From the IMG/VR virus record IMGVR_UViG_2541047845_000008: a stretch of DNA of 15,043 bases; one strand, given 5' to 3'. Shown piece by piece: positions 659-15,043 of the stretch; within the stretch, counting starts at the first letter, position 1; each line of letters opens with the position of its first letter. A program made the translations under genes and the position numbers. The notes beneath the pieces are model-generated. The model saw only the letters and a list, made by a program, of their open reading frames with translations. It had not been told where the DNA came from and did not search any database. Source of the stretch: a virus. Its lineage: Duplodnaviria; Heunggongvirae; Uroviricota; Caudoviricetes.

Positions 659-940
659 TTACGTACGCAGTCGTTCCGGCTTCTTCCAGTGGTACGTTAT
701 TTTCTCCTTCTCCCGATACATCTCCACGCGGCGACGGTAGGCCAGCAACTCAAGAACTCTGGTTCGTATGTTGCGCATATCCACGCCATTAAGTTCTATA
801 CCATCACGGCGCATCACCTCAGCAACAACACGCGCATAGTTTTCGGCTGTCACGCTGTCCGGCTGCGTGGCCTGTTCGTCAGCCTGCTGGCTGATTCCGG
901 CAACGCGGCGGATTAATCCCGTTATTTCGGCTTCTGTCAT
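659..940 (-). CDS. Hypothetical protein (93 aa), last gene of the packaging operon
   Basis: ATG at 940 preceded by a GAGGT Shine-Dalgarno; starts 14 nt after the TerL stop. No family recognised. Confidence 0.55.
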   Translation of the reverse strand: MTEAEITGLIRRVAGISQQADEQATQPDSVTAENYARVVAEVMRRDGIELNGVDMRNIRTRVLELLAYRRRVEMYREKEKITYHWKKPERLRT

Positions 941-953
941 GCTGCTGACCTCA

Positions 954-2615
954 TTACACCCCGCTAAATTCTTCCAGTTTCTGGCGGTGGCTGTCGCTTA
1001 TATCAAAAGCAAAATCCTCATGCTCTGCCTGGAATGTACCAAACGCCATCAGCGCCGCCACGCTCGGGTCTATCTTGTTCGGTGATTTTTTCTTGTTCGG
1101 CTTGATATTGGCGTTCGCGTCACTCTGCATCACGACGTTACTCATCGACCAGGACAACACCGGATCGCCACGATGCACAATCACCCTGCGGTTAACAAAA
1201 ACTTCGAACGATTTCGCCGCCGGACTGAATCTGAGGTAGGTTTGCGGGAACGGCTCCACCTCAAAACCTGCCCCCTGTAATTGCGTTCTGAGATGCGTGG
1301 CGTTCCACGTATCAAAGCCCACCAGCCTGATATTAAATTTCTCCGCGTCCTGCATGATGTCATCTCTGATCCGGTCGTAATCAATGCAGTCGCCAGGCGT
1401 TGTGCGTATCCAGCCCGCTTTAGCCCACTGACGATAGACAGCGCGGTTTTTATTGGCGGGGTTCTGTAGCTGGAACTCCGGCAGATAATGACGGGAAACC
1501 AGCATAATGGTTTTACCGACCGGAAAGGCATAGCACACGCTGGAAATATCGCTTGTGGATGATAAATCCAGCCCCGCGTAACACTCCTGGCCGTGTAAAT
1601 CTTCCTCCGTGAACGTTCCGGCGCACTCCGCCCATGCACCGTTACCCATCCACGGCGTAGCCCCCTGACACCAGATATTGAATCGCTTGGTGAGCATTTC
1701 CACCCACTGCGACGGAATACCCCGCGCTTTCTGGATGGTTGAGGCCAGTTTTTCACGATCGACGGAAACATCGATATTTGGATTCGCCTTTATCCACATC
1801 GCCGGATCGTCAACCTCGCTTTCATCATCCAGCTCGTAAATCAGAACGAACATGGATTCGTTCATCTCTTCACCATCCAGTATCTGACAGCAATAGTCAT
1901 AGTGTTGTTTACAGGCTGAAACAACGTTGCTCCCCGATGTGGTGATGGCAAATAACAGCCCCTCCGGACGCGCCCCCATCCCCATATCAAGTGCGGAATA
2001 AACCCCGTTGTCTGGGTGCAGGTGATATTCATCCACAATGGCAAGACTCGGGTTTGTCCCCTCAATGGTTGCCGCTTTTGCTGCCAGTGGCTTTAACAGG
2101 CTGTTGGTTTTCGGGTGTATCACCTTATGCGCCTGAATATTCACCCGCCTGCGTAACGGTCGGGATAAAAGGCACATCTGACGCGCATCATCAAAGACGA
2201 TCCGCGCCTGGTCACGGCTCACCGCTGCGGTGTAGATATCCTGCTGACCGTTCTCCATAATCAAAAACCAGTTAGCCAGAATCGCGGCGGTCGTGGATTT
2301 CGCATTTTTGCGCGGCACTTCGATAAAGGCGCTCGTGTATTTGCGCCGTCCGGTGGCCTTAACCTTAAAGCCGAGGATGCACGCAAAGGCGAACTGCTGC
2401 CACGGCTCCAGCTCAATGGGTCTGCCACGCATCGGCCCTTTTACGTGCGCGCACACCCTGGAAAAGGCAATAAACCGCTCCACAACCTCACGATCGAACG
2501 TGTAAAGGGGGCTTTCAAGGTCCGAAAAGTACCGTTTAACGGCCTGTTTCAGCCGTTTACAGGCCGGAATTTTGCCCGTTTTTACGTCTTCTGCGTACTT
2601 ATTCCAGGCGGTCAA
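954..2615 (-). CDS. Phage terminase large subunit
   Basis: 553 aa. N-terminus MTAWNKYAEDVKTGKIPACKRLKQAVKRYFSDL is typical of HK97-type large terminases, with an ATPase P-loop-like PRKNAKST and an acidic C-terminal nuclease region. Apparent TTG start at 2615 with GAGGA Shine-Dalgarno, overlapping the TerS 3' end by 17 nt. Confidence 0.9.
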   Translation of the reverse strand: MTAWNKYAEDVKTGKIPACKRLKQAVKRYFSDLESPLYTFDREVVERFIAFSRVCAHVKGPMRGRPIELEPWQQFAFACILGFKVKATGRRKYTSAFIEVPRKNAKSTTAAILANWFLIMENGQQDIYTAAVSRDQARIVFDDARQMCLLSRPLRRRVNIQAHKVIHPKTNSLLKPLAAKAATIEGTNPSLAIVDEYHLHPDNGVYSALDMGMGARPEGLLFAITTSGSNVVSACKQHYDYCCQILDGEEMNESMFVLIYELDDESEVDDPAMWIKANPNIDVSVDREKLASTIQKARGIPSQWVEMLTKRFNIWCQGATPWMGNGAWAECAGTFTEEDLHGQECYAGLDLSSTSDISSVCYAFPVGKTIMLVSRHYLPEFQLQNPANKNRAVYRQWAKAGWIRTTPGDCIDYDRIRDDIMQDAEKFNIRLVGFDTWNATHLRTQLQGAGFEVEPFPQTYLRFSPAAKSFEVFVNRRVIVHRGDPVLSWSMSNVVMQSDANANIKPNKKKSPNKIDPSVAALMAFGTFQAEHEDFAFDISDSHRQKLEEFSGV

Positions 2616-2955
2616 GCTCGTCCTCTTCTTCTGTTTCCGGTGGATTTTTACGGCGGCTTATCGGGTCAAAACCGAGCAAGGAGGCCATTTTTATCATCAC
2701 TCTTTCAGCGTCGGATTTTGCGCTTAATGCGGGGTTTCTGCTCTCGCCGCCCTGACTGTTAACAATGCTGAACCCGCGCGCCGCAAGGTCTGCGACGGCT
2801 TTCCGGTAAATGGAGTAGTTGACACAATACAGTTCCAGATTGCTCCAGTCGGCGGGGGTCAGGTCTCCCCGTTCCGCAAGCTGCCGCGATTTTTCCCGCC
2901 ACTGCTTCACGGCGATGTCATCCAGGTAGGCGGGGGCTTTCGGTGGTCTTGCCAT
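2599..2955 (-). CDS. Phage terminase small subunit (P27-family-like)
   Basis: 118 aa, MARPPKAP... N-terminus and acidic C-terminal tail; positioned immediately upstream of and overlapping TerL, downstream of HNH and the putative cos region. Confidence 0.8.
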   Translation of the reverse strand: MARPPKAPAYLDDIAVKQWREKSRQLAERGDLTPADWSNLELYCVNYSIYRKAVADLAARGFSIVNSQGGESRNPALSAKSDAERVMIKMASLLGFDPISRRKNPPETEEEDELDRLE

Positions 2956-3243
2956 GCTTATTTTTCGTCAGATTATTTTTCAAAAAATTCCCGTGCATAA
3001 AAATTTGAGGAGGCGTTCGGTGTCCGGCAGGGACGGTTTCGTCCTGAAAACCACCCCCACCCCCTCTGACGGCCTCACCAGCGATTGCGAAAACATTCCA
3101 TGACCTCGCGGTCACGGTCGGTTAATCGCTTCGCTGTGGTGCGTTCTGTGCGCCCTGTCCTGTTGGCTTTGTGCCCTGTCTCCTGTGTCTTCCATGCGTC
3201 ATGCTGCCTTATCAGTCCACGAATCAGCCTGTTTTGTTCCTGT
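2956..3243. other. Putative cos / terminase recognition region
   Basis: The only sizeable non-coding gap (about 290 bp) inside the packaging module, between HNH and TerS, where HNH-dependent cos phages of the HK97 type place cos. Contains palindrome GGACG-GTTT-CGTCC (about 3031-3044), a C-rich tract CCACCCCCACCCCC (about 3052-3065), and two near-identical pyrimidine-rich direct repeats CTGTGCGCCCTGTCC / TGTGCCCTGTCTCC (about 3146-3185). Confidence 0.35.
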
Positions 3244-3684
3244 TCAGTCATCATCGCCATACATCCAGTCGTTACGGTGTGCCGCCCGTTCTTCCTGCTC
3301 GCGATACATGCCCGCTTTACGGTTTGCTTTCGTGGCGGGATCTTCCCGCGTCGTCTTACGGTTGTGGCACGTCTGGCACAATGCCTGGTGATTCCACTCA
3401 GGCCAGAAGAGAACATCACCGCCACCATTGATGGGGATAATGTGATCCACCACAAAGGCTGGCGTATAAATACCCTCAGCCAGACAACGCACACATAACG
3501 GATTTTTTTTCAGGTACATGGCGCGGTATTTGTCCCACTGTCGGGAATACCCACGTGCGCGGCGGTGTCCCCGTCTGGCATCCTCTGCACGCCATGCAGC
3601 CCGCCTGTGCTCTTCACACTTGCCGGACTTCACGCGCTTATTACAGCCCGGCTCAGTGCATCGCCTTAATGGTTGCCACGGCAT
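3244..3684 (-). CDS. HNH endonuclease (terminase-associated)
   Basis: 146 aa with paired cysteine clusters (CTEPGCNKR..KC and LCVRC ... CQTCHNRK) and HNH-like motif VDHIIPINGGG ... WNHQALCQTCHN. Start codon overlaps the stop of the upstream connector gene. Confidence 0.9.
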   Translation of the reverse strand: MPWQPLRRCTEPGCNKRVKSGKCEEHRRAAWRAEDARRGHRRARGYSRQWDKYRAMYLKKNPLCVRCLAEGIYTPAFVVDHIIPINGGGDVLFWPEWNHQALCQTCHNRKTTREDPATKANRKAGMYREQEERAAHRNDWMYGDDD

Positions 3685-3980
3685 CAGTACACCCCCACAT
3701 CACGATAAACCGACCAGAGCATCCCTACAGCCAGCGGGATTTCTTTTGTGTCTGCATCCCCGACCGTGGCCCTGTATTCGTACAGTTGCGACACGTACAT
3801 CATGCAGCCAATCTTTATGGCTGGCGTGAACTCCAGCCCGTCATCAAAGCGCCTGCCGATGTGTTTCTGGCACACCTCAAGCGCGGCGGCGATGTATCCG
3901 CTGATTAACTGGTCTTCCTCATTGCCATCAATGCGGCAATGGAGTTTCACTTCTTCCAGGGTGATTAATTCTGCTGTCAT
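3684..3980 (-). CDS. Phage gp6-like head-tail connector protein
   Basis: 98 aa; N-terminus MTAELITLEEVKLHCRIDGNEEDQLISGYIAAA matches the characteristic LITLEE-K-HLRID...D-LI-.YI-AA pattern of gp6-like connector proteins. Overlaps neighbours at both ends. Confidence 0.75.
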   Translation of the reverse strand: MTAELITLEEVKLHCRIDGNEEDQLISGYIAAALEVCQKHIGRRFDDGLEFTPAIKIGCMMYVSQLYEYRATVGDADTKEIPLAVGMLWSVYRDVGVY

Positions 3981-4315
3981 CGTGGCGCACCTGTTTTACA
4001 AAGAATTTCCAGACGAGTCCTTTTACCGTCGGGAACGGGGGGGCCAACAATATCAAGCTCATTGCCGGAATAAGCCCCCGTGAGTACCCGTATCCGGCTG
4101 GATGCCGTAACATCCCCACGAAAACGGATCCAGACTCTTACGGTTGCCTGTGCCGTTTCTGCACCTGCGGTCATGCGTTCCCGTCCGCTGATCCCTTTCA
4201 CCTCCGCCCATACGGTGGCAACATCCTCCCATGTGCTTTTCATTGCACCGGAAGGGAGGCGGGAAAGTTTCGCGCTCATGATGACAATGCGATCCCTCAT
4301 GCTCCCCGCTCTCAT
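3977..4315 (-). CDS. Phage head closure / head-tail adaptor protein
   Basis: 112 aa; size, position after the portal gene and the motif VWAEVKGISGRE...TVRVWIRFRGDV resemble head-tail joining proteins. ATG at 4315 overlaps the portal stop. Confidence 0.7.
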   Translation of the reverse strand: MRAGSMRDRIVIMSAKLSRLPSGAMKSTWEDVATVWAEVKGISGRERMTAGAETAQATVRVWIRFRGDVTASSRIRVLTGAYSGNELDIVGPPVPDGKRTRLEILCKTGAPR

Positions 4316-5526
4316 GATTTGCCCTCTTTATCGTCCTTTACTTCGATCTCCTGTTTCCAGGCCTGGCTGAACTCATCGCCACCATCACGCGGCGATAATC
4401 CCTCACGTTCGCGGGCTTCGTTCGGGCACATAACGCCGGACTTGATGCCGCGTTCATAGGTGGCAAAGCGTTCGCCAGGTGTGGCCCGTAACAGGTCCGC
4501 GCTGTCAAACTCCACCTGATACCGGATACCAGGTACAGGCGAGGCCACCAGCAAAGCATTTTTTATCTGCTGCTCAAAGTTCGCCAGCCACGGGCGCATC
4601 GTCATGGTCAGAAACGCGCGGCTTGCCTCGCTGAAATTGCTGTAGGTGCTGTTGCTGTATTCCTGCAGAAAAATCGGCGAGACGTTGAACATTCGGGCGA
4701 TGTCTTCAATGGTGAAGCGACGGGAGGCCAGCCATTCAGCATCCTGGTTACTCATGCCAAGCTGCTGATAGCTCATACCCCCTTCAAGAATGGGCGTTTT
4801 TCCGGCGTTTCTGGCTCCTTTGTAGCGTTCCAGTGCGGCTAATGCCTGTTTGCCCTTCACGCCGTCCAGCCATTCGCCTGACGTGATAACCCCTGCTGCC
4901 ATCATGCCATCACGCATCACGCTCGCGCCGTGGCGCTGTTGGGCCAGCCCAAGCCCCAGCGATTCGCGGCAGATGGTCACAGGTGAGCGCCCCATAAAGC
5001 CGTCATCCGTGGAGTAACGAAGGTGGAGAACCTCCCACGGTAAATAGTTGCGGGTGTTTCCGCTGTAAGCGTCAGTGATGCGGTAACGCCAGTTATGTTC
5101 CCCTGTCTGCTCAACATTCACCGACTGCGGCGGGTAAGGGTGCAAAGCCACCGGAAAACCATCACGCCCCCACTGAATCACCGCATAAGCATTACCGTTT
5201 AACAGGCAGTGGCGGACCATCATTCGCTTAAACTGATAGGGCGTCTGCCACGCGTTCGGGCGCTCGTTGAGGATATGATCGACCGGATGAGAATCAAGCC
5301 ACTCGCGGGCCTCCTTCCCCTTCTCATTGCGTACCAGGTACAGGTAGCATGGCATAGTAGCCACCGCCTCAGAGATGACCGTGACGGCGTTCATGACGGC
5401 GGGGAGTGATTCCGCTGTCCCCGATGATACGTACTCACCCGCCCCCGTGTTCGATGTGCCAGCCAGCGCCATAAATTCATCCAGCGTAAGGCTGCGATGC
5501 TCTTGTTTTCGTCTGAAAGGCCACAT
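4312..5526 (-). CDS. Phage portal protein (HK97 family-like)
   Basis: 404 aa; length, position adjacent to the prohead protease gene and conserved portal-like core; acidic C-terminus. Confidence 0.85.
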   Translation of the reverse strand: MWPFRRKQEHRSLTLDEFMALAGTSNTGAGEYVSSGTAESLPAVMNAVTVISEAVATMPCYLYLVRNEKGKEAREWLDSHPVDHILNERPNAWQTPYQFKRMMVRHCLLNGNAYAVIQWGRDGFPVALHPYPPQSVNVEQTGEHNWRYRITDAYSGNTRNYLPWEVLHLRYSTDDGFMGRSPVTICRESLGLGLAQQRHGASVMRDGMMAAGVITSGEWLDGVKGKQALAALERYKGARNAGKTPILEGGMSYQQLGMSNQDAEWLASRRFTIEDIARMFNVSPIFLQEYSNSTYSNFSEASRAFLTMTMRPWLANFEQQIKNALLVASPVPGIRYQVEFDSADLLRATPGERFATYERGIKSGVMCPNEAREREGLSPRDGGDEFSQAWKQEIEVKDDKEGKS

Positions 5527-5527
5527 A

Positions 5528-6103
5528 TCACACCCCCGCTAAATCCGCCCACCAGCGGCGATTATCCGCGCGTGGCATTTTTTCGGGGTGCTGCTCATAC
5601 AGGGAACGGCGGGCCAGATCCACGCCGGAATCAGGGTAAGCCGGTACGGATGTAACGGTAATTTCGTACAGTTCCGCCACCAGCACGGTGCGCACGCATG
5701 GATCTGTTGTGGTATCCCATACATCCTTACGGGAACGAAAGCCAAAGCTCATGCCGGATATATCACCACGTTTAACCAGTTCGATAACGTCCCGCCCTGT
5801 GCTGGTATCCGGTGGGGTCAGTTCAAAGCGTAACCCTGTGTCGTCCTCTTCCAGTTTCAGCGTGCCGGAACGGGTGCGCCCCAGTAACATGCTGTGGTCA
5901 TGCTCATACAGGCCACGAACGTCATTACCCGCCGCCAGCCACTCACTGAACGCCCCCCGCTGGAATTTTTCGTAAAACTCACCCCATAGCAGATCAGAAA
6001 GGTTATTCCAGCGAACAACGTAACCCGTCAGCGTACTGGCTCCGCTGGTGGTGATTTCTGATGACCGGATTTCCATGCTCTTTTTCATATTTTTTTCACC
6101 CAT
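5528..6103 (-). CDS. Prohead maturation protease (HK97 family-like)
   Basis: 191 aa; lies between the major capsid and portal genes. Alternative ATG starts at 6088 (GGTGA Shine-Dalgarno) or 6076 are possible. Confidence 0.8.
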   Translation of the reverse strand: MGEKNMKKSMEIRSSEITTSGASTLTGYVVRWNNLSDLLWGEFYEKFQRGAFSEWLAAGNDVRGLYEHDHSMLLGRTRSGTLKLEEDDTGLRFELTPPDTSTGRDVIELVKRGDISGMSFGFRSRKDVWDTTTDPCVRTVLVAELYEITVTSVPAYPDSGVDLARRSLYEQHPEKMPRADNRRWWADLAGV

Positions 6104-6138: not shown

Positions 6139-7308
6139 TTAATCGCCGTTTTTCATCTCGAGGACTTTTATCGCGCGGGAGTCAACAACCCCGCCGCCGA
6201 TGTATTTATCCGTGTGTACCTTGTAGAAGCCCGGCTCTGTAATGTTGTCCGGTCGGGTACGGATCCCCGTTTCATGGTCAACGATGAAATAACCGCGCTT
6301 AAAGTCACCGACAGCCAGCGGCGTTTTGCCTTTGCCGATGTCCGGCATACTTTCCAGGTAATAAACAGGACGGCCCAGCAATGTGTCAGGTGCGCCCTCT
6401 TTGAGGCTGTCACGCCATACGTAATCACCGCTCTGGTTTTTCAGCTTCTGCAATGCTGCCGCAGTGTTCGAGTTCATCACCCACACGGCGTTCTTACGGT
6501 ATTTCGCTTTCAGCTTGTAGAGGATGTCGATCAGTTCGTCCGCTGTAATGGCGTCGGTTGTTGTAACCATTTTTTCAATGGTGCCAAAGGCGCGGGCTTT
6601 GTCGTTGTTGGTATCACGGGTGTAATTCAGGAAACCCTTCGGCTTGCCAGTACCGTCACCATTTACAAAATCATCTTCTTCGGTCGTGGCGAACGTGTCG
6701 GCGATTTCAGACGATAACCAGCCCAGCACATCCACTTCTGAAAAATCCAGGATTTCCTGCGTGGTTTTCGGGTAGGCATAGATCGGGTTAAGTTTGATGC
6801 TTACGCGCTCAACTTTCGGGGTTTCTGTTTCGGTTCGCTTGTTGCCCTCAGTGCCACGCCCCACCGTTGCGCCACCTGTGGAAACCAGTTTCTGGTATTC
6901 GTTTGATTTCGCCGTTTTCACCGTCGCAATCATTCGCATGACGCTTTCATCACTCAGTAACCGCATAACCTCGCGATCAAGCTCAGGGATAACGGTATAA
7001 CCACCGTCCTTGCCGCCGTTGGTGGTGGTGGATAATGAGCGAACGTCACCCGTTACGATGTAGTTGCGAAGTTCTGCGGGGTCAGTGGTCTGGCTGGCTT
7101 TACCTGGCTTGCTGCGCTCTTCGTCGGCAACGGCTTCAAGGCGGGAAATGTCTTTATCGAGGGATTCAGCTTTAGCGCGTAATTCGTCAAATTTTGCGCC
7201 CTCGGCGTCGTTAAGGCTGCGGTTTTCTTTTTCCGCGTTCTCCAGCATGTCGCGCATCTGATTTTTGATGGCGGTTTTCTGCTGGCGCAATTCGATAATT
7301 CTCGGCAT
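6139..7308 (-). CDS. Major capsid protein, HK97 fold
   Basis: N-terminal coiled-coil delta-domain-like region (MPRIIELRQQKTAIKNQMRDMLENAEKENRSL...) followed by a capsid core. The ORF track extends to 7353 on a TTG; ATG at 7308 is the more likely start (389 aa). Confidence 0.9.
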   Translation of the reverse strand: MPRIIELRQQKTAIKNQMRDMLENAEKENRSLNDAEGAKFDELRAKAESLDKDISRLEAVADEERSKPGKASQTTDPAELRNYIVTGDVRSLSTTTNGGKDGGYTVIPELDREVMRLLSDESVMRMIATVKTAKSNEYQKLVSTGGATVGRGTEGNKRTETETPKVERVSIKLNPIYAYPKTTQEILDFSEVDVLGWLSSEIADTFATTEEDDFVNGDGTGKPKGFLNYTRDTNNDKARAFGTIEKMVTTTDAITADELIDILYKLKAKYRKNAVWVMNSNTAAALQKLKNQSGDYVWRDSLKEGAPDTLLGRPVYYLESMPDIGKGKTPLAVGDFKRGYFIVDHETGIRTRPDNITEPGFYKVHTDKYIGGGVVDSRAIKVLEMKNGD

Positions 7309-7558
7309 AAAAAAAAGTCCTGATGCAAAGAGGAAAACACCAGGACGCGGCAAGACTCACGGTACGAGAACAAAAAGAAATGCACACCGATGCAGGCTTC
7401 CCGCCTGTTAACGCTGATGAGATTAACAGGCGGGAAAATGGTCCCAGCGTCCTGGCAACAGTGGCGAGAATAACCACGGTTCGGGCCTGATAAAATAAGC
7501 CAGCCATGCCGCTGAACAACCACGAACAACCACGCACAAATAATTTACAAAAGCTGAC

Positions 7559-9063: not shown

Positions 9064-10818
9064 TTATAAAAACGCGTCGCAATCGTCTGTTGTTATTGCG
9101 TTAGTCTGCGTTACTCCCTTAACTTTCCGCGTAATATATTCATGTCCGTAAACTTTCGCGGCTGGCTTCATAGCCTTGCCAAAGTCATTTACGTTTAGCG
9201 GTTTGCTCCTGCCTGCGTATGCCATAAACGCCAGATAGACGCGGTAAAGGCTGTTCCTGGTCGTGTACTTCACTGAATCGCCACCGCCCCCCATCATCAG
9301 GCCGCGCGCTTCCTCCAGAAAATTCAGGAACTGGCAAAACTCAATAACCGGATCCGTCTGTTGCTTTATTGCCAGTGCTTCATCACCGTCACGCTGTTCC
9401 AGTAGTAAAGCCCGTGCCTTCTCAGGGTCGGTAAAGTTCGCCAGCAATCGGCGGATAATGACAGGGATTTCAGCCGCAATCTTTTCCGGTAGCTCCCTGT
9501 CTTTTTCGGCCTCACTGACGATATTGTCGAAACGGAAAATTACGCGACGACGTGACACACCTCCGGCCCGTTCGGTGAATATCATCGGATTGTTATTGGT
9601 TGCCAGCACCACCGCCCTGATTACCGCCGTAAAACGCTTTTCATATTTCGGGTTAATTTCCACGGGGTCGCCGCCCGTGATTTTCTTGATGCCCGTTCCT
9701 TCGCCTGTATATTTCGGCTGGTCAGCCAGGACGATAAGACGACTCCCGACAACCTGCGCACGTCCACCAGCATCATCAAGCGATGTCATTTCAGCGCTTA
9801 CCGTGTTCTGTTTCCCTGCCAGAAGGCTGGCTATGTGCGTGAATGTACTTTTACCGCTCCCGCCATCTCCGGTGGCCTCAATAAACATCTGCCAGTCGTA
9901 CCGGTTCGCCATAATCATGTACAGCGCGGCACATATACGCATCATCTTGCGCGGGTCTTTTCCGGCTGCGTGCTCAAGCCATTTATGAAAGTTTGGCGCG
10001 TTATCGCGGATGTTCTCCCCTGGTGCTGGTGGCGTGTACTCAATGCCGTTGTGCGTGGTGATCCAGTTCTCCGGCGTGTGCGGGGAAAATTCCCCCGTTT
10101 TCAGGTCAAGCGCACCATTGGCGAACGGCAGCAAATCGCCGGACGGCTCGCCCATTGGTTCGGCAATAACTTTTAACGCTTCCACGGCGTTATTGATTAC
10201 GCGCTTGCTGAAAGTGGCCCTGTGCTCTGAATAGATCGCCACCATTTCGCGGCTAAGTTCCATTGTGCTGACCGGACACCATACCCCGCCGCGCCATACG
10301 TGAACGATTTCACTTTCAGGATGTACGCAAACGCCATCAAAGCGATCGGCAAGCAGCTGCGCGCGCTCACTGTCCGCCATCTGCGAAAGTTGCGCCTTTT
10401 GCTTTACCGGAAGCTCAATGACCAGACCATCAGAAAGATTCTGGCGCTCACGGGCCAGATATTCGCGCCAGTTCTCCACCTTCTGACCGTGCATACCCTC
10501 AGGATAAAAATTTGCATCCTGTACGCCTGCCGCCGCCAGCTTCTGGCCAATCGCCTTTATCATTACTGGCGCAAGATATCCGGCCCTGAATATGCGCACG
10601 GATTTTCTGCCTTCCGGCACAATTTGCAGCTTATCCAGTTCTGATAACTGCTGCTCCCCAAGCCACACAGGAGGCTCATTATCTCCGGCCATACGCGCAT
10701 CATGTTCCTGCCATTGTTTCGCGTGTGCCCAGGCATCACTACCCGCAAAAATAATGACTTCTGTTCCTTTGTGTTTTATGCCGCGTGACTGCTGTTTTAC
10801 GTTCGGTGCCAGTTTCAT
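9064..10818 (-). CDS. DNA primase/replicase, P4 alpha-like family
   Basis: 584 aa with Walker A GDGGSGKST and surrounding NTPase motifs; architecture resembles satellite primase-helicases. Its ATG overlaps the stop of the upstream small gene (ATGA). Confidence 0.85.
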   Translation of the reverse strand: MKLAPNVKQQSRGIKHKGTEVIIFAGSDAWAHAKQWQEHDARMAGDNEPPVWLGEQQLSELDKLQIVPEGRKSVRIFRAGYLAPVMIKAIGQKLAAAGVQDANFYPEGMHGQKVENWREYLARERQNLSDGLVIELPVKQKAQLSQMADSERAQLLADRFDGVCVHPESEIVHVWRGGVWCPVSTMELSREMVAIYSEHRATFSKRVINNAVEALKVIAEPMGEPSGDLLPFANGALDLKTGEFSPHTPENWITTHNGIEYTPPAPGENIRDNAPNFHKWLEHAAGKDPRKMMRICAALYMIMANRYDWQMFIEATGDGGSGKSTFTHIASLLAGKQNTVSAEMTSLDDAGGRAQVVGSRLIVLADQPKYTGEGTGIKKITGGDPVEINPKYEKRFTAVIRAVVLATNNNPMIFTERAGGVSRRRVIFRFDNIVSEAEKDRELPEKIAAEIPVIIRRLLANFTDPEKARALLLEQRDGDEALAIKQQTDPVIEFCQFLNFLEEARGLMMGGGGDSVKYTTRNSLYRVYLAFMAYAGRSKPLNVNDFGKAMKPAAKVYGHEYITRKVKGVTQTNAITTDDCDAFL

Positions 10819-13825: not shown

Positions 13826-15043
13826 TTATTTTCTTCTGGCTACTGGTAGCGTGGTTACGTTTTCATGTGTTCCCGCCAGTATCCCTAACCGCTCCGTCCA
13901 CATATCCAGCGCATTGCGTTTAGCATCCAGATAACGGGAATGATTATAAACTCGCTGCATTCCTGGCATCTGGTGGCCTGTAAGCTGCTCCACGACATGC
14001 GGATCAACGCCTAAATCGTTCAGCATGGTTGTAAAGGTGCGCCGGATGTCATGCAGTGACCAGTGAGGGTGATTAAGCCTCCTGTGCACTAATCTGCCGT
14101 ACTGCGATACGCTGGCCTCCTGTTTCACTTCCCCCAGCAATAAGCCCGTGTGCCTGTTCTGCTCCACCAGCTGCGTGACGAACGGCAGGATCGCTTCCGG
14201 TATGGGCCGGAATATTGCGACCTTCGTTTTGCTGTGCTCCTTCGGAACGGTCCATAGCATTTCCGTAAAATCCCACTCCCCGATCTCCGATAACCTCAGT
14301 TCTACCGTTCTGGCTCCGAAGACAATCAGGAGGCGGATTAACGCGACGTAGTAAGGGGAAAATATTTTTTTGTCCAGTGCCTGCAATAATTCGCCAAGTT
14401 CTTTGTTACTTAAGACACGTTCGCTTATATCCGGTTTTTTCCCAACGTCCGCCACGTTCAGATCGTCCAGAACGTTGCTGATTGCATAGCGCCGCCTACG
14501 GCAAAACTTAAGCGCCTGTTTGCACGCCTGTAGCACGAATCCGGCAGTAACAGGCGTTCGCTTTGCCACCTGGTCAAAACAGGCCAGCCAGTGCCGTAGC
14601 TCGCATTTATCCAGCGGCATAGCACCAATCTGCTGTATTACGTGATTATTAAGTCGCCTTTTCAGGGCGATATAATCCACGCGGTTTTCCTTTACGTAAT
14701 ACTCAAGCCAGTAGGTGAGCGCATCGCCAACCGTTACCGGCTTTAACGCTTCCTGTACGGTGTAATTAAGCTCATGACGTGGATTTTTCCCCTCTGCCAG
14801 CCATGCGCGACACTGGGCGGCTTTTTCCCTGGCTGATTTCAGGCTCAGATCAGGATAATTTCCCAGCTTAATGCGTTCCGGTGGTGCCCCCCTTCCCGTT
14901 CCGGCCCTGTAAGTGAAATACCAGGTCAATTTCCCTGATGTTAAATATTTCACGCTCAGGTTTCCGCCATCACTATAAAACGTGTTTTTCTCCGCTGGCT
15001 TACCATGAAGTTTCCTTAGCAAGGTATCGCTCAGTTTGTTCAT
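13826..15043 (-). CDS. int: Tyrosine recombinase, P4-type integrase
   Basis: 405 aa; N-terminal arm-binding-like region, core-binding domain, and catalytic C-terminus with R ... HDIRRT ... and YNHSRYLD (catalytic Tyr region). Its ATG is the last three bases of the window, so its upstream region and the adjacent att site are outside the window. Confidence 0.95.
   Translation of the reverse strand: MNKLSDTLLRKLHGKPAEKNTFYSDGGNLSVKYLTSGKLTWYFTYRAGTGRGAPPERIKLGNYPDLSLKSAREKAAQCRAWLAEGKNPRHELNYTVQEALKPVTVGDALTYWLEYYVKENRVDYIALKRRLNNHVIQQIGAMPLDKCELRHWLACFDQVAKRTPVTAGFVLQACKQALKFCRRRRYAISNVLDDLNVADVGKKPDISERVLSNKELGELLQALDKKIFSPYYVALIRLLIVFGARTVELRLSEIGEWDFTEMLWTVPKEHSKTKVAIFRPIPEAILPFVTQLVEQNRHTGLLLGEVKQEASVSQYGRLVHRRLNHPHWSLHDIRRTFTTMLNDLGVDPHVVEQLTGHQMPGMQRVYNHSRYLDAKRNALDMWTERLGILAGTHENVTTLPVARRK

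Follow-up and report, generated by a model that had tools for sequence, protein, structure and literature searches.

The interval between the HNH endonuclease gene and terS in the window (the whole 15,043-nucleotide stretch of DNA that was analysed) very probably contains the cos site of an Escherichia coli capsid-forming PICI (cf-PICI). We estimate a probability of about 0.8 that the region at 2973-3064 is this site and that it belongs to the HNH-dependent, 3'-overhang family represented by P27, SfV/SfI, phiE125 and HK97. Read along the minus strand, the proposed layout is the HNH gene, a small ORF, a G-box (3064-3042), a 20-nt spacer, a core (3021-2973) and the start of terS. An initial annotation of this DNA had proposed a cos site somewhere within 2956-3243. 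We find there a conserved block homologous to the cos sites of P27, SfI, phiE125 and HK97, and a contig assembled from particle DNA of a Klebsiella relative breaks at the corresponding position, both of which support that proposal.

All genes of interest in the window lie on the minus strand. ORFs, Pfam matches and RefSeq annotation together define an integrase (13826-15043), a primase (9064-10818), a major capsid protein (6139-7353), a prohead protease (5528-6103), a portal (4312-5526), a head closure protein (3977-4315) and a connector (3684-3980), followed by the HNH endonuclease (3244-3684), TerS (2599-2955) and TerL (954-2615); genes for tail and lysis functions are absent. Cf-PICIs are elements of ∼10-18 kb with an integrase, a replication module and a capsid-protease-portal-connectors-HNH-TerS-TerL module, and they lack tail and lysis genes (10.1101/2025.02.11.637232; their architecture is laid out in bioRxiv 10.1101/2022.09.08.507074). 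Their small capsids are of their own making, and their packaging relies on HNH, TerS and TerL proteins that the elements themselves supply (bioRxiv 10.1101/2022.09.08.507074; 10.1101/2025.02.11.637232). A 99.8%-identical copy in E. coli SB0258h1 forms a ∼14.6-kb island between hpt and gcd, again without tail or lysis genes, and the region is present in 514 of 5,426 complete E. coli genomes. We assign the element to the cf-PICIs because of its capsid-to-TerL gene order, its integrase and primase, the absence of tail genes and its occurrence as a ∼14.6-kb hpt-gcd island; its size is also that of a cf-PICI. A conserved 93-amino acid ORF just past TerL (659-940, minus strand; phrog_1561, E = 5.6e-56) is the last island gene before hpt.

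The minus-strand order HNH, gap, TerS, TerL bears out the earlier statement that an HNH gene sits directly upstream of TerS/TerL, and the interval studied here lies between the HNH gene and terS-terL. The HNH protein, a packaging accessory nuclease, matches the Pfam HNH family (E = 1.9e-9) and phrog_144 (8e-45), and shares 40% sequence identity with P27 L34 (5e-20) and 36% with HK97 gp74 (3e-17). TerS belongs to the P27 family (Pfam Terminase_4, 1.3e-23; TIGR01558, 1.9e-16, scoring 60.1 bits against a cutoff of 45.6) and is 31% identical to P27 L35 (5e-17). TerL contains the Pfam TerL_ATPase and TerL_nuclease domains and is homologous to the P27 large subunit L36 (30% identity, 8e-82).

We gathered 39 loci from species-representative genomes by TerS alignment and compared the sequences upstream of terS in Escherichia, Klebsiella, Citrobacter, Enterobacter, Kosakonia, Erwinia, Pantoea, Serratia, Photorhabdus, Aeromonas and several Pasteurellaceae. 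TerS identity to the window is 58-84% across these genera (58-68% in the Pasteurellaceae). The alignment reveals a bipartite conserved block, which we quantified as mean pairwise identity among 24 loci from Enterobacterales, Aeromonas and Pasteurellaceae. The G-box GGGGGTGGGGGTGGTTTTCAGGA (3042-3064, minus strand; also given as GGGGTGGGGGAGGTTTTCAGGAC) has an identity of 0.72, and the 49-nt cos core ACCGAACGCCTCCTCAAATTTTTATGCACGGGAATTTTTTGAAAAATAA (2973-3021, minus strand; family consensus ACCGCCCGCCCCCTCAAATTTTTACGCACGGTGATTTTTTTGAAAATAA) reaches 0.82. The spacer between them (3022-3041, minus strand) has a constant length of 20 nt and an identity of 0.47, and the values for the flanks are 0.38 upstream (3065-3082) and 0.39 downstream (2960-2972). 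No indels occur from G-box to core among the 24 loci, and the terS start codon follows ∼17 nt beyond the core on the gene strand. The C-tract that had been counted as part of the cos site consists of two C5 runs (3054-3058 and 3060-3064) and is, on the gene strand, the G-box; it is the one feature on that earlier list that is conserved across genera. The G-box, as the upstream arm of the cos region, might position HNH/TerL or act in termination.

A degenerate pattern of the core, run on IMG/VR, returned at least 120 matching stretches. Among the 120 matches listed, a terS homologue is located 14-169 nt downstream of the core in 119 and an HNH homologue upstream of it in 118; none of these core-containing contigs ends at the predicted cut. 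Three IMG/VR contigs end nearby, with breaks in terS or upstream of the G-box.

Some copies of the module depart from this arrangement. In Shigella flexneri SFBU1023 (CP182556.1), a deletion of ∼105 bp joins the spacer behind the G-box to approximately codon 8 of terS; the junction is a shared CCCCGCC (locus L088, 2480-2510). This copy should be incapable of packaging, because the deletion removes the cos core together with the terS start. Several Pasteurellaceae elements carry 70-190 extra bases between the cos core and terS that are rich in short palindromes (CCAAATTTGG, CCAATTTTGG), and the genome of 'Pasteurellaceae bacterium Macca' contains at least nine copies of the module.

The block stands in register with cos sites mapped in phages. 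In a blastn search, the cf-PICI consensus matches the depositor-annotated "cos-site" of phiP27 (AJ298298.1, misc_feature 21806-21815, CGCCCGCCCC), which is located between the HNH gene L34 and the Terminase_4 TerS gene L35, followed by the TerL gene L36. The alignment of P27 with the cf-PICIs is gapless from the G-run through TCAAATTTTTAC, and over the 28 nt surrounding the cut the core of the EDL933-type cf-PICI shares 92.9% identity with P27. When we searched with the P27 region, the final base of the SfI record turned out to coincide exactly with that of the aligned 10-mer, and the phiE125 and phi1026b records to begin at the base after it. Run-off sequencing of SfI particle DNA shows a gap of 10 nt, TGCCCGCCCC, when set against the prophage (PMC3636060); as this is a gap and not an overlap, we infer that the 5' ends are recessed, i.e. 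that the overhangs are 3'. HK97 likewise has 10-nt 3' overhangs (PMC11331095, PMC9410871), and its site has the same register, with the G-run ending at -43, GAC followed by CGCCGCCAAA at the record end, ACGC at +12..+15 and a T-tract at +24..+30. The cf-PICIs share the ACGC at +12..+15 (ATGC in the window) and a T-tract at about +23 to +29/30 in gapless alignment. A local alignment of the HK97 cos junction with the consensus scores 46, compared with 21.7 ± 3.8 for 500 shuffles. In the window, P27, phiE125, HK97 and KpCIDSM30104 alike, the last base of the G-run lies at -41 to -43. By blastn and gapless multi-genome alignment, the G-run, the AC, the C-rich 10-mer and the TCAAATTTTT that follows it thus occupy the same positions as in the mapped sites.

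The gene preceding the cos end in phiE125, gp70 (AF447491.1, 52916-53272), is annotated as 'putative class I holin', yet it shows a clear HNH motif (…CQPCL…VDHV…CRDCHAAKT…). Given this motif and its position directly upstream of the cos end, gp70 is most likely the packaging HNH endonuclease.

By homology to four mapped or recorded sites, the predicted 10-nt 3' cohesive end in the window is CGAACGCCTC (3010-3019, minus strand). The nicks would fall between 3010 and 3009 on the gene strand and between 3020 and 3019 on the other strand, leaving a 3' overhang. We rate these exact positions, placed by homology, as probable, at a lower confidence than the cos region as a whole. The 10-mer takes 29 forms among 145 distinct contexts, with hardly any change in the AC and TCAAATTTTT on either side of it; a variable 10-mer between nearly fixed flanks agrees with an overhang that separates two recognition elements. 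The window-clade form differs from the consensus and from the commonest forms at 4 of 10 positions. A cut after CTCAAA (between 3004 and 3003), which a gapped local alignment with HK97 had suggested, is superseded by the gapless P27/SfI/phiE125 register that gives 3010/3009.

Sequence on the terS side of the cut is conserved in the window (2973-3009), and the T-tract columns are invariant across the 24 loci. In HK97, the minimal TerS site spans +15..+29 on the terS side of the cut and its A/T tract is essential (PMC11331095). By analogy, the TerS-binding site of the window is predicted to be CACGGGAATTTTTTG, which includes the T-tract and occupies the same +15..+29 positions (about 2981-2995, minus strand, on the terS side of the cut). 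BLASTP detects no similarity between HK97 TerS and the TerS of the window.

A break at the block is seen in particle DNA of a Klebsiella relative. A blastn comparison of the interval with phage records identified LR881103.1 (vB_KppS-Ant), in which the match extends to the last base of the record. This record was assembled with SPAdes from Illumina reads of particle DNA and left unmodified, with no re-orientation mentioned in the methods (PMC8006926). We take vB_KppS-Ant to be the cf-PICI KpCIDSM30104, because its source strain is Klebsiella pneumoniae DSM 30104. The last 2,400 bp and the first 2,800 bp of the contig match the copy integrated in K. pneumoniae ATCC 13883 (L089) at 100% identity, and the contig lacks exactly 69 bp of that copy (L089 2410-2478). 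The missing segment holds the 10-mer (2431-2440), corresponds to window 2969-3040 and includes the core. The library was presumably prepared by tagmentation. A unit-length contig that falls short by a few tens of bases on either side of one point is as expected for a cos genome in a tagmentation library; in principle, the 69-bp gap could also reflect a dropout in coverage and not the true ends of the molecule. He et al. report that KpCIDSM30104 DNA, once packaged, is joined into concatemers via cohesive ends (10.1101/2025.02.11.637232).

Two observations concern the phage records themselves. The source paper of vB_KppS-Ant calls it a filamentous ssDNA phage (PMC8006926). Its genes include those for capsid, portal, HNH, TerS and TerL proteins, and the one at 2036-4333 is annotated 'tail length tape measure protein', which is odd for a cf-PICI. 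The 106.5-kb record of Klebsiella phage P12620-1 (PQ569648.1) looks chimeric, with a cf-PICI-like segment of ∼16 kb (∼90,600-106,503) appended to unrelated sequence. This segment runs from terS codon 2 to a point 7 nt short of the small-ORF stop codon, which places the break in the cos gap, but as a second end-mapping we give it little weight, the record being chimeric.

Headful packaging, in which the block would be no more than a pac recognition signal and staggered cuts at defined positions would not occur, is countered by the single defined break in the unit-length particle contig and by the cohesive-end concatemers of the related cf-PICI. Moreover, a module of HNH, P27-family TerS and TerL is that of cos phages (PMC3592412), and many records of the nearest true-phage relatives of TerL, such as BiPBO1, phi105, Gamma and WBeta, start just upstream of terS. 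We consider headful packaging the least probable of the readings discussed here.

A role for the block in terS-terL expression, be it as a promoter, a late-activator operator or an mRNA structure, would suit its location directly upstream of terS and its A/T-rich sequence near the start codon, and a scan of the gene strand picked out two terminator-like hairpins close by. This number is within expectation (2 compared with 0.8 ± 0.8), and the gene strand yielded no sigma-70-like promoter, so we rejected a promoter or terminator. An Rfam search of the conserved block returned no match and its RNAalifold consensus amounts to -1.87 kcal/mol with no compensatory pairs, which rules out a known RNA family or an RNA structure. 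In addition, the genomes of SfI, phiE125 and HK97 physically end at the homologous positions, and the contig from particles of the Klebsiella relative breaks at the block. An expression element in place of a packaging site thus appears very unlikely to us, and we retain the cos assignment.

The interval is not an empty gap. About 186 of the 288 bases at 2956-3243 belong to a small conserved gene (3075-3260, minus strand; ∼58-61 amino acids, 61 in the RefSeq annotation), which overlaps the HNH stop codon and aligns with phrog_3173 from end to end (E = 1.8e-29); the truly non-coding part comprises only 2956-3074. The encoded protein ends in a C-terminal motif RDRE[LV]xECFRNR. Searches for the small ORF in Pfam, NCBIfam and the PDB returned no match, and a homologue search found matches only in E. 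coli and E. fergusonii proteins; we collected the wider set of orthologues by synteny. An open frame of 49-59 amino acids is maintained at the same position in 17 orthologues from 13 enterobacterial genera, with a median dN/dS of ∼0.34 and most variation at third codon positions. Its stop codon precedes the G-box by exactly 16 nt in the relatives and by 13 nt in the window clade. The Aeromonas, Citrobacter amalonaticus and Pasteurellaceae relatives lack the ORF. The small gene may serve as a packaging accessory. One E. coli copy (IMGVR_UViG_2671180417_000010) has a 1-bp deletion within the ORF, aligned to window 3193, and the Kosakonia cowanii ORF also appears frameshifted; either these frameshifts are sequencing errors or the gene is dispensable.

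The coding part of the interval also contains the two pyrimidine-rich direct repeats (3147-3163 and 3170-3186) that the initial annotation had proposed as terminase-binding sites, and which we judge to lie outside the cos site. Together with short palindromes and the C-tract, they suggested an arrangement of the lambda type, in which the repeats at 3147-3186 would be TerS sites, as in a cosB with R repeats, and the nick would fall at a palindrome or in the C-tract. All of these features are present in the interval, and the C-tract is genuinely conserved. The repeats share 13 of 17 bases, a level that dinucleotide shuffles attain in 11% (within 60 nt) to 31% (anywhere) of cases. They fall within a 7-codon insertion of the small ORF that is found only in the E. 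coli clade, and this stretch is also where 64 distinct E. coli-type sequences, once aligned, vary most. The sequence at the repeat position differs even among elements whose TerS proteins are 100% identical to that of the window, and Klebsiella, Aeromonas and Pasteurellaceae relatives keep the cos block without the repeats, which lie ∼140-175 nt from the predicted cut on the side away from terS. Being at chance level, part of a coding insertion and variable among elements with identical TerS, the repeats cannot be conserved TerS-binding sites. The palindromes have stems of only 5 bp (e.g. 3031-3044 and 3102-3115); perfect stems of this length or longer arise in 72% of shuffles, and relatives have not retained the palindromes, which speaks against a palindromic nicking site. 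We therefore rejected both repeats and palindromes as functional sites on the basis of the shuffles and their lack of conservation. The homologous phages are cut ∼42 nt downstream of the G-run end and not within the G-run. The interval hence has no conserved array of TerS-bound repeats, its sole repeats being chance-level, coding and lineage-specific, and we give almost no credence to a lambda-like arrangement. What remains of the features first listed for the interval is the C-tract.

Under the preferred cos assignment, packaging could proceed as follows. After induction and replication, the island TerS would bind the A/T-tract box just past the cut (∼2995-2981), and TerL, aided by the HNH protein, would introduce two staggered nicks flanking the C-rich 10-mer (3019-3010), leaving 10-nt 3' cohesive ends. 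Packaging would begin from the terS side and end at the next cos, placing ∼15-kb unit-length DNA into small capsids made by the island.

The initial annotation had further suggested that an island-specific cos would let the element package itself selectively. As stated, this is unsupported, the nick region being common to true phages such as P27, SfV and ST64B, with the close match of the EDL933-type core to P27 as one instance. Specificity of any sort would have to reside in the flanks or in the variant 10-mer. Since the nick region is shared with phages, the exclusive self-packaging of cf-PICIs, and with it packaging selectivity, is probably provided by the TerS-side flank and not by a unique cos. 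A more speculative idea, which we regard as rather unlikely, combines two proposals, namely that the cos of the window sub-clade has been re-tuned as a packaging-specificity switch, and that the enteric-only phrog_3173 protein, whose gene has its stop codon phased exactly 13-16 nt from the G-box, is a fourth, cos-proximal packaging factor. The switch could consist of CGAACGCCTC in place of CGCCCGCCCC and of ATGCACGGGAATTTTTT in place of ACGCACGGTGATTTTTTT in the +12..+30 box. If true, it would make packaging orthogonal to P27/SfV-like phages and to co-resident cf-PICIs.

The accessible cf-PICI literature states that packaging is cos-type and HNH-dependent (bioRxiv 10.1101/2022.09.08.507074; 10.1101/2025.02.11.637232); we did not find the sequence or position of a cf-PICI cos there. 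Our analysis proposes a concrete one, consisting of the G-box, a 20-nt spacer, AC, the 10-mer, TCAAATTTTT and then a T-tract box. The block is a compact marker that could aid the annotation of cf-PICIs, the prediction of packaged ends and the design of packaging-competent or packaging-disabled constructs. The cos family itself is already known, and an HK97/P27-like cos is to be expected for an HK97/P27-like module and will not surprise specialists.

The lambda cos comprises cosQ, cosN and cosB, with R repeats, an IHF site and a 12-nt 5' overhang. The site described here resembles it in function, with a nick site flanked by a terminase-binding element on the first-packaged side. It differs from lambda in having no conserved repeat array and no sequence similarity, in using another terminase family together with an HNH partner, and in that the overhangs of its homologues are 3' and not 5'.

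Much closer are the cos sites of P27 and SfV/SfI (TGCCCGCCCC / AGCCCGCCCC), which share the order HNH, cos, TerS (Terminase_4 / P27 family) and TerL. In P27, as in the cf-PICIs, a G-box is followed by a C-rich 10-mer and then TCAAATTTTTAC, in gapless alignment. The packaging proteins, in contrast, are just 30-40% identical to those of P27, the window-clade 10-mer CGAACGCCTC has 4 differences, and past +12 the window reads ATGCACGGGAATTTTTTGAAAAAT where P27 has ACACCCGCGAAATTAAAAATTTCAGG. Unlike phage P27, the host element is a ∼15-kb tail-less satellite, and it has a small extra ORF between HNH and the G-box.

With HK97, where gp74 is an HNH protein that stimulates cleavage, the window shares a homologous HNH protein, a G-run that ends ∼42 nt before the cut, AC before and CGCC after the upstream nick, ACGC at +12..+15 (ATGC in the window) and a T-tract at about +23 to +30. 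The overhang sequences differ, and HK97 TerS, apart from its lack of BLASTP similarity to that of the window, has no Pfam Terminase_4 match. The distance from HNH to the cut is 319 bp in HK97 and ∼234 bp in the window.

The nearest counterparts are the cf-PICIs EcCIEDL933 and KpCIDSM30104, which agree with the window in module order and size. The contig from the EDL933 host and KpCIDSM30104 have the same cos block as the window, from which they are distinguished by the features of the window sub-clade, its diverged 10-mer and the 7-codon insertion in the small ORF.
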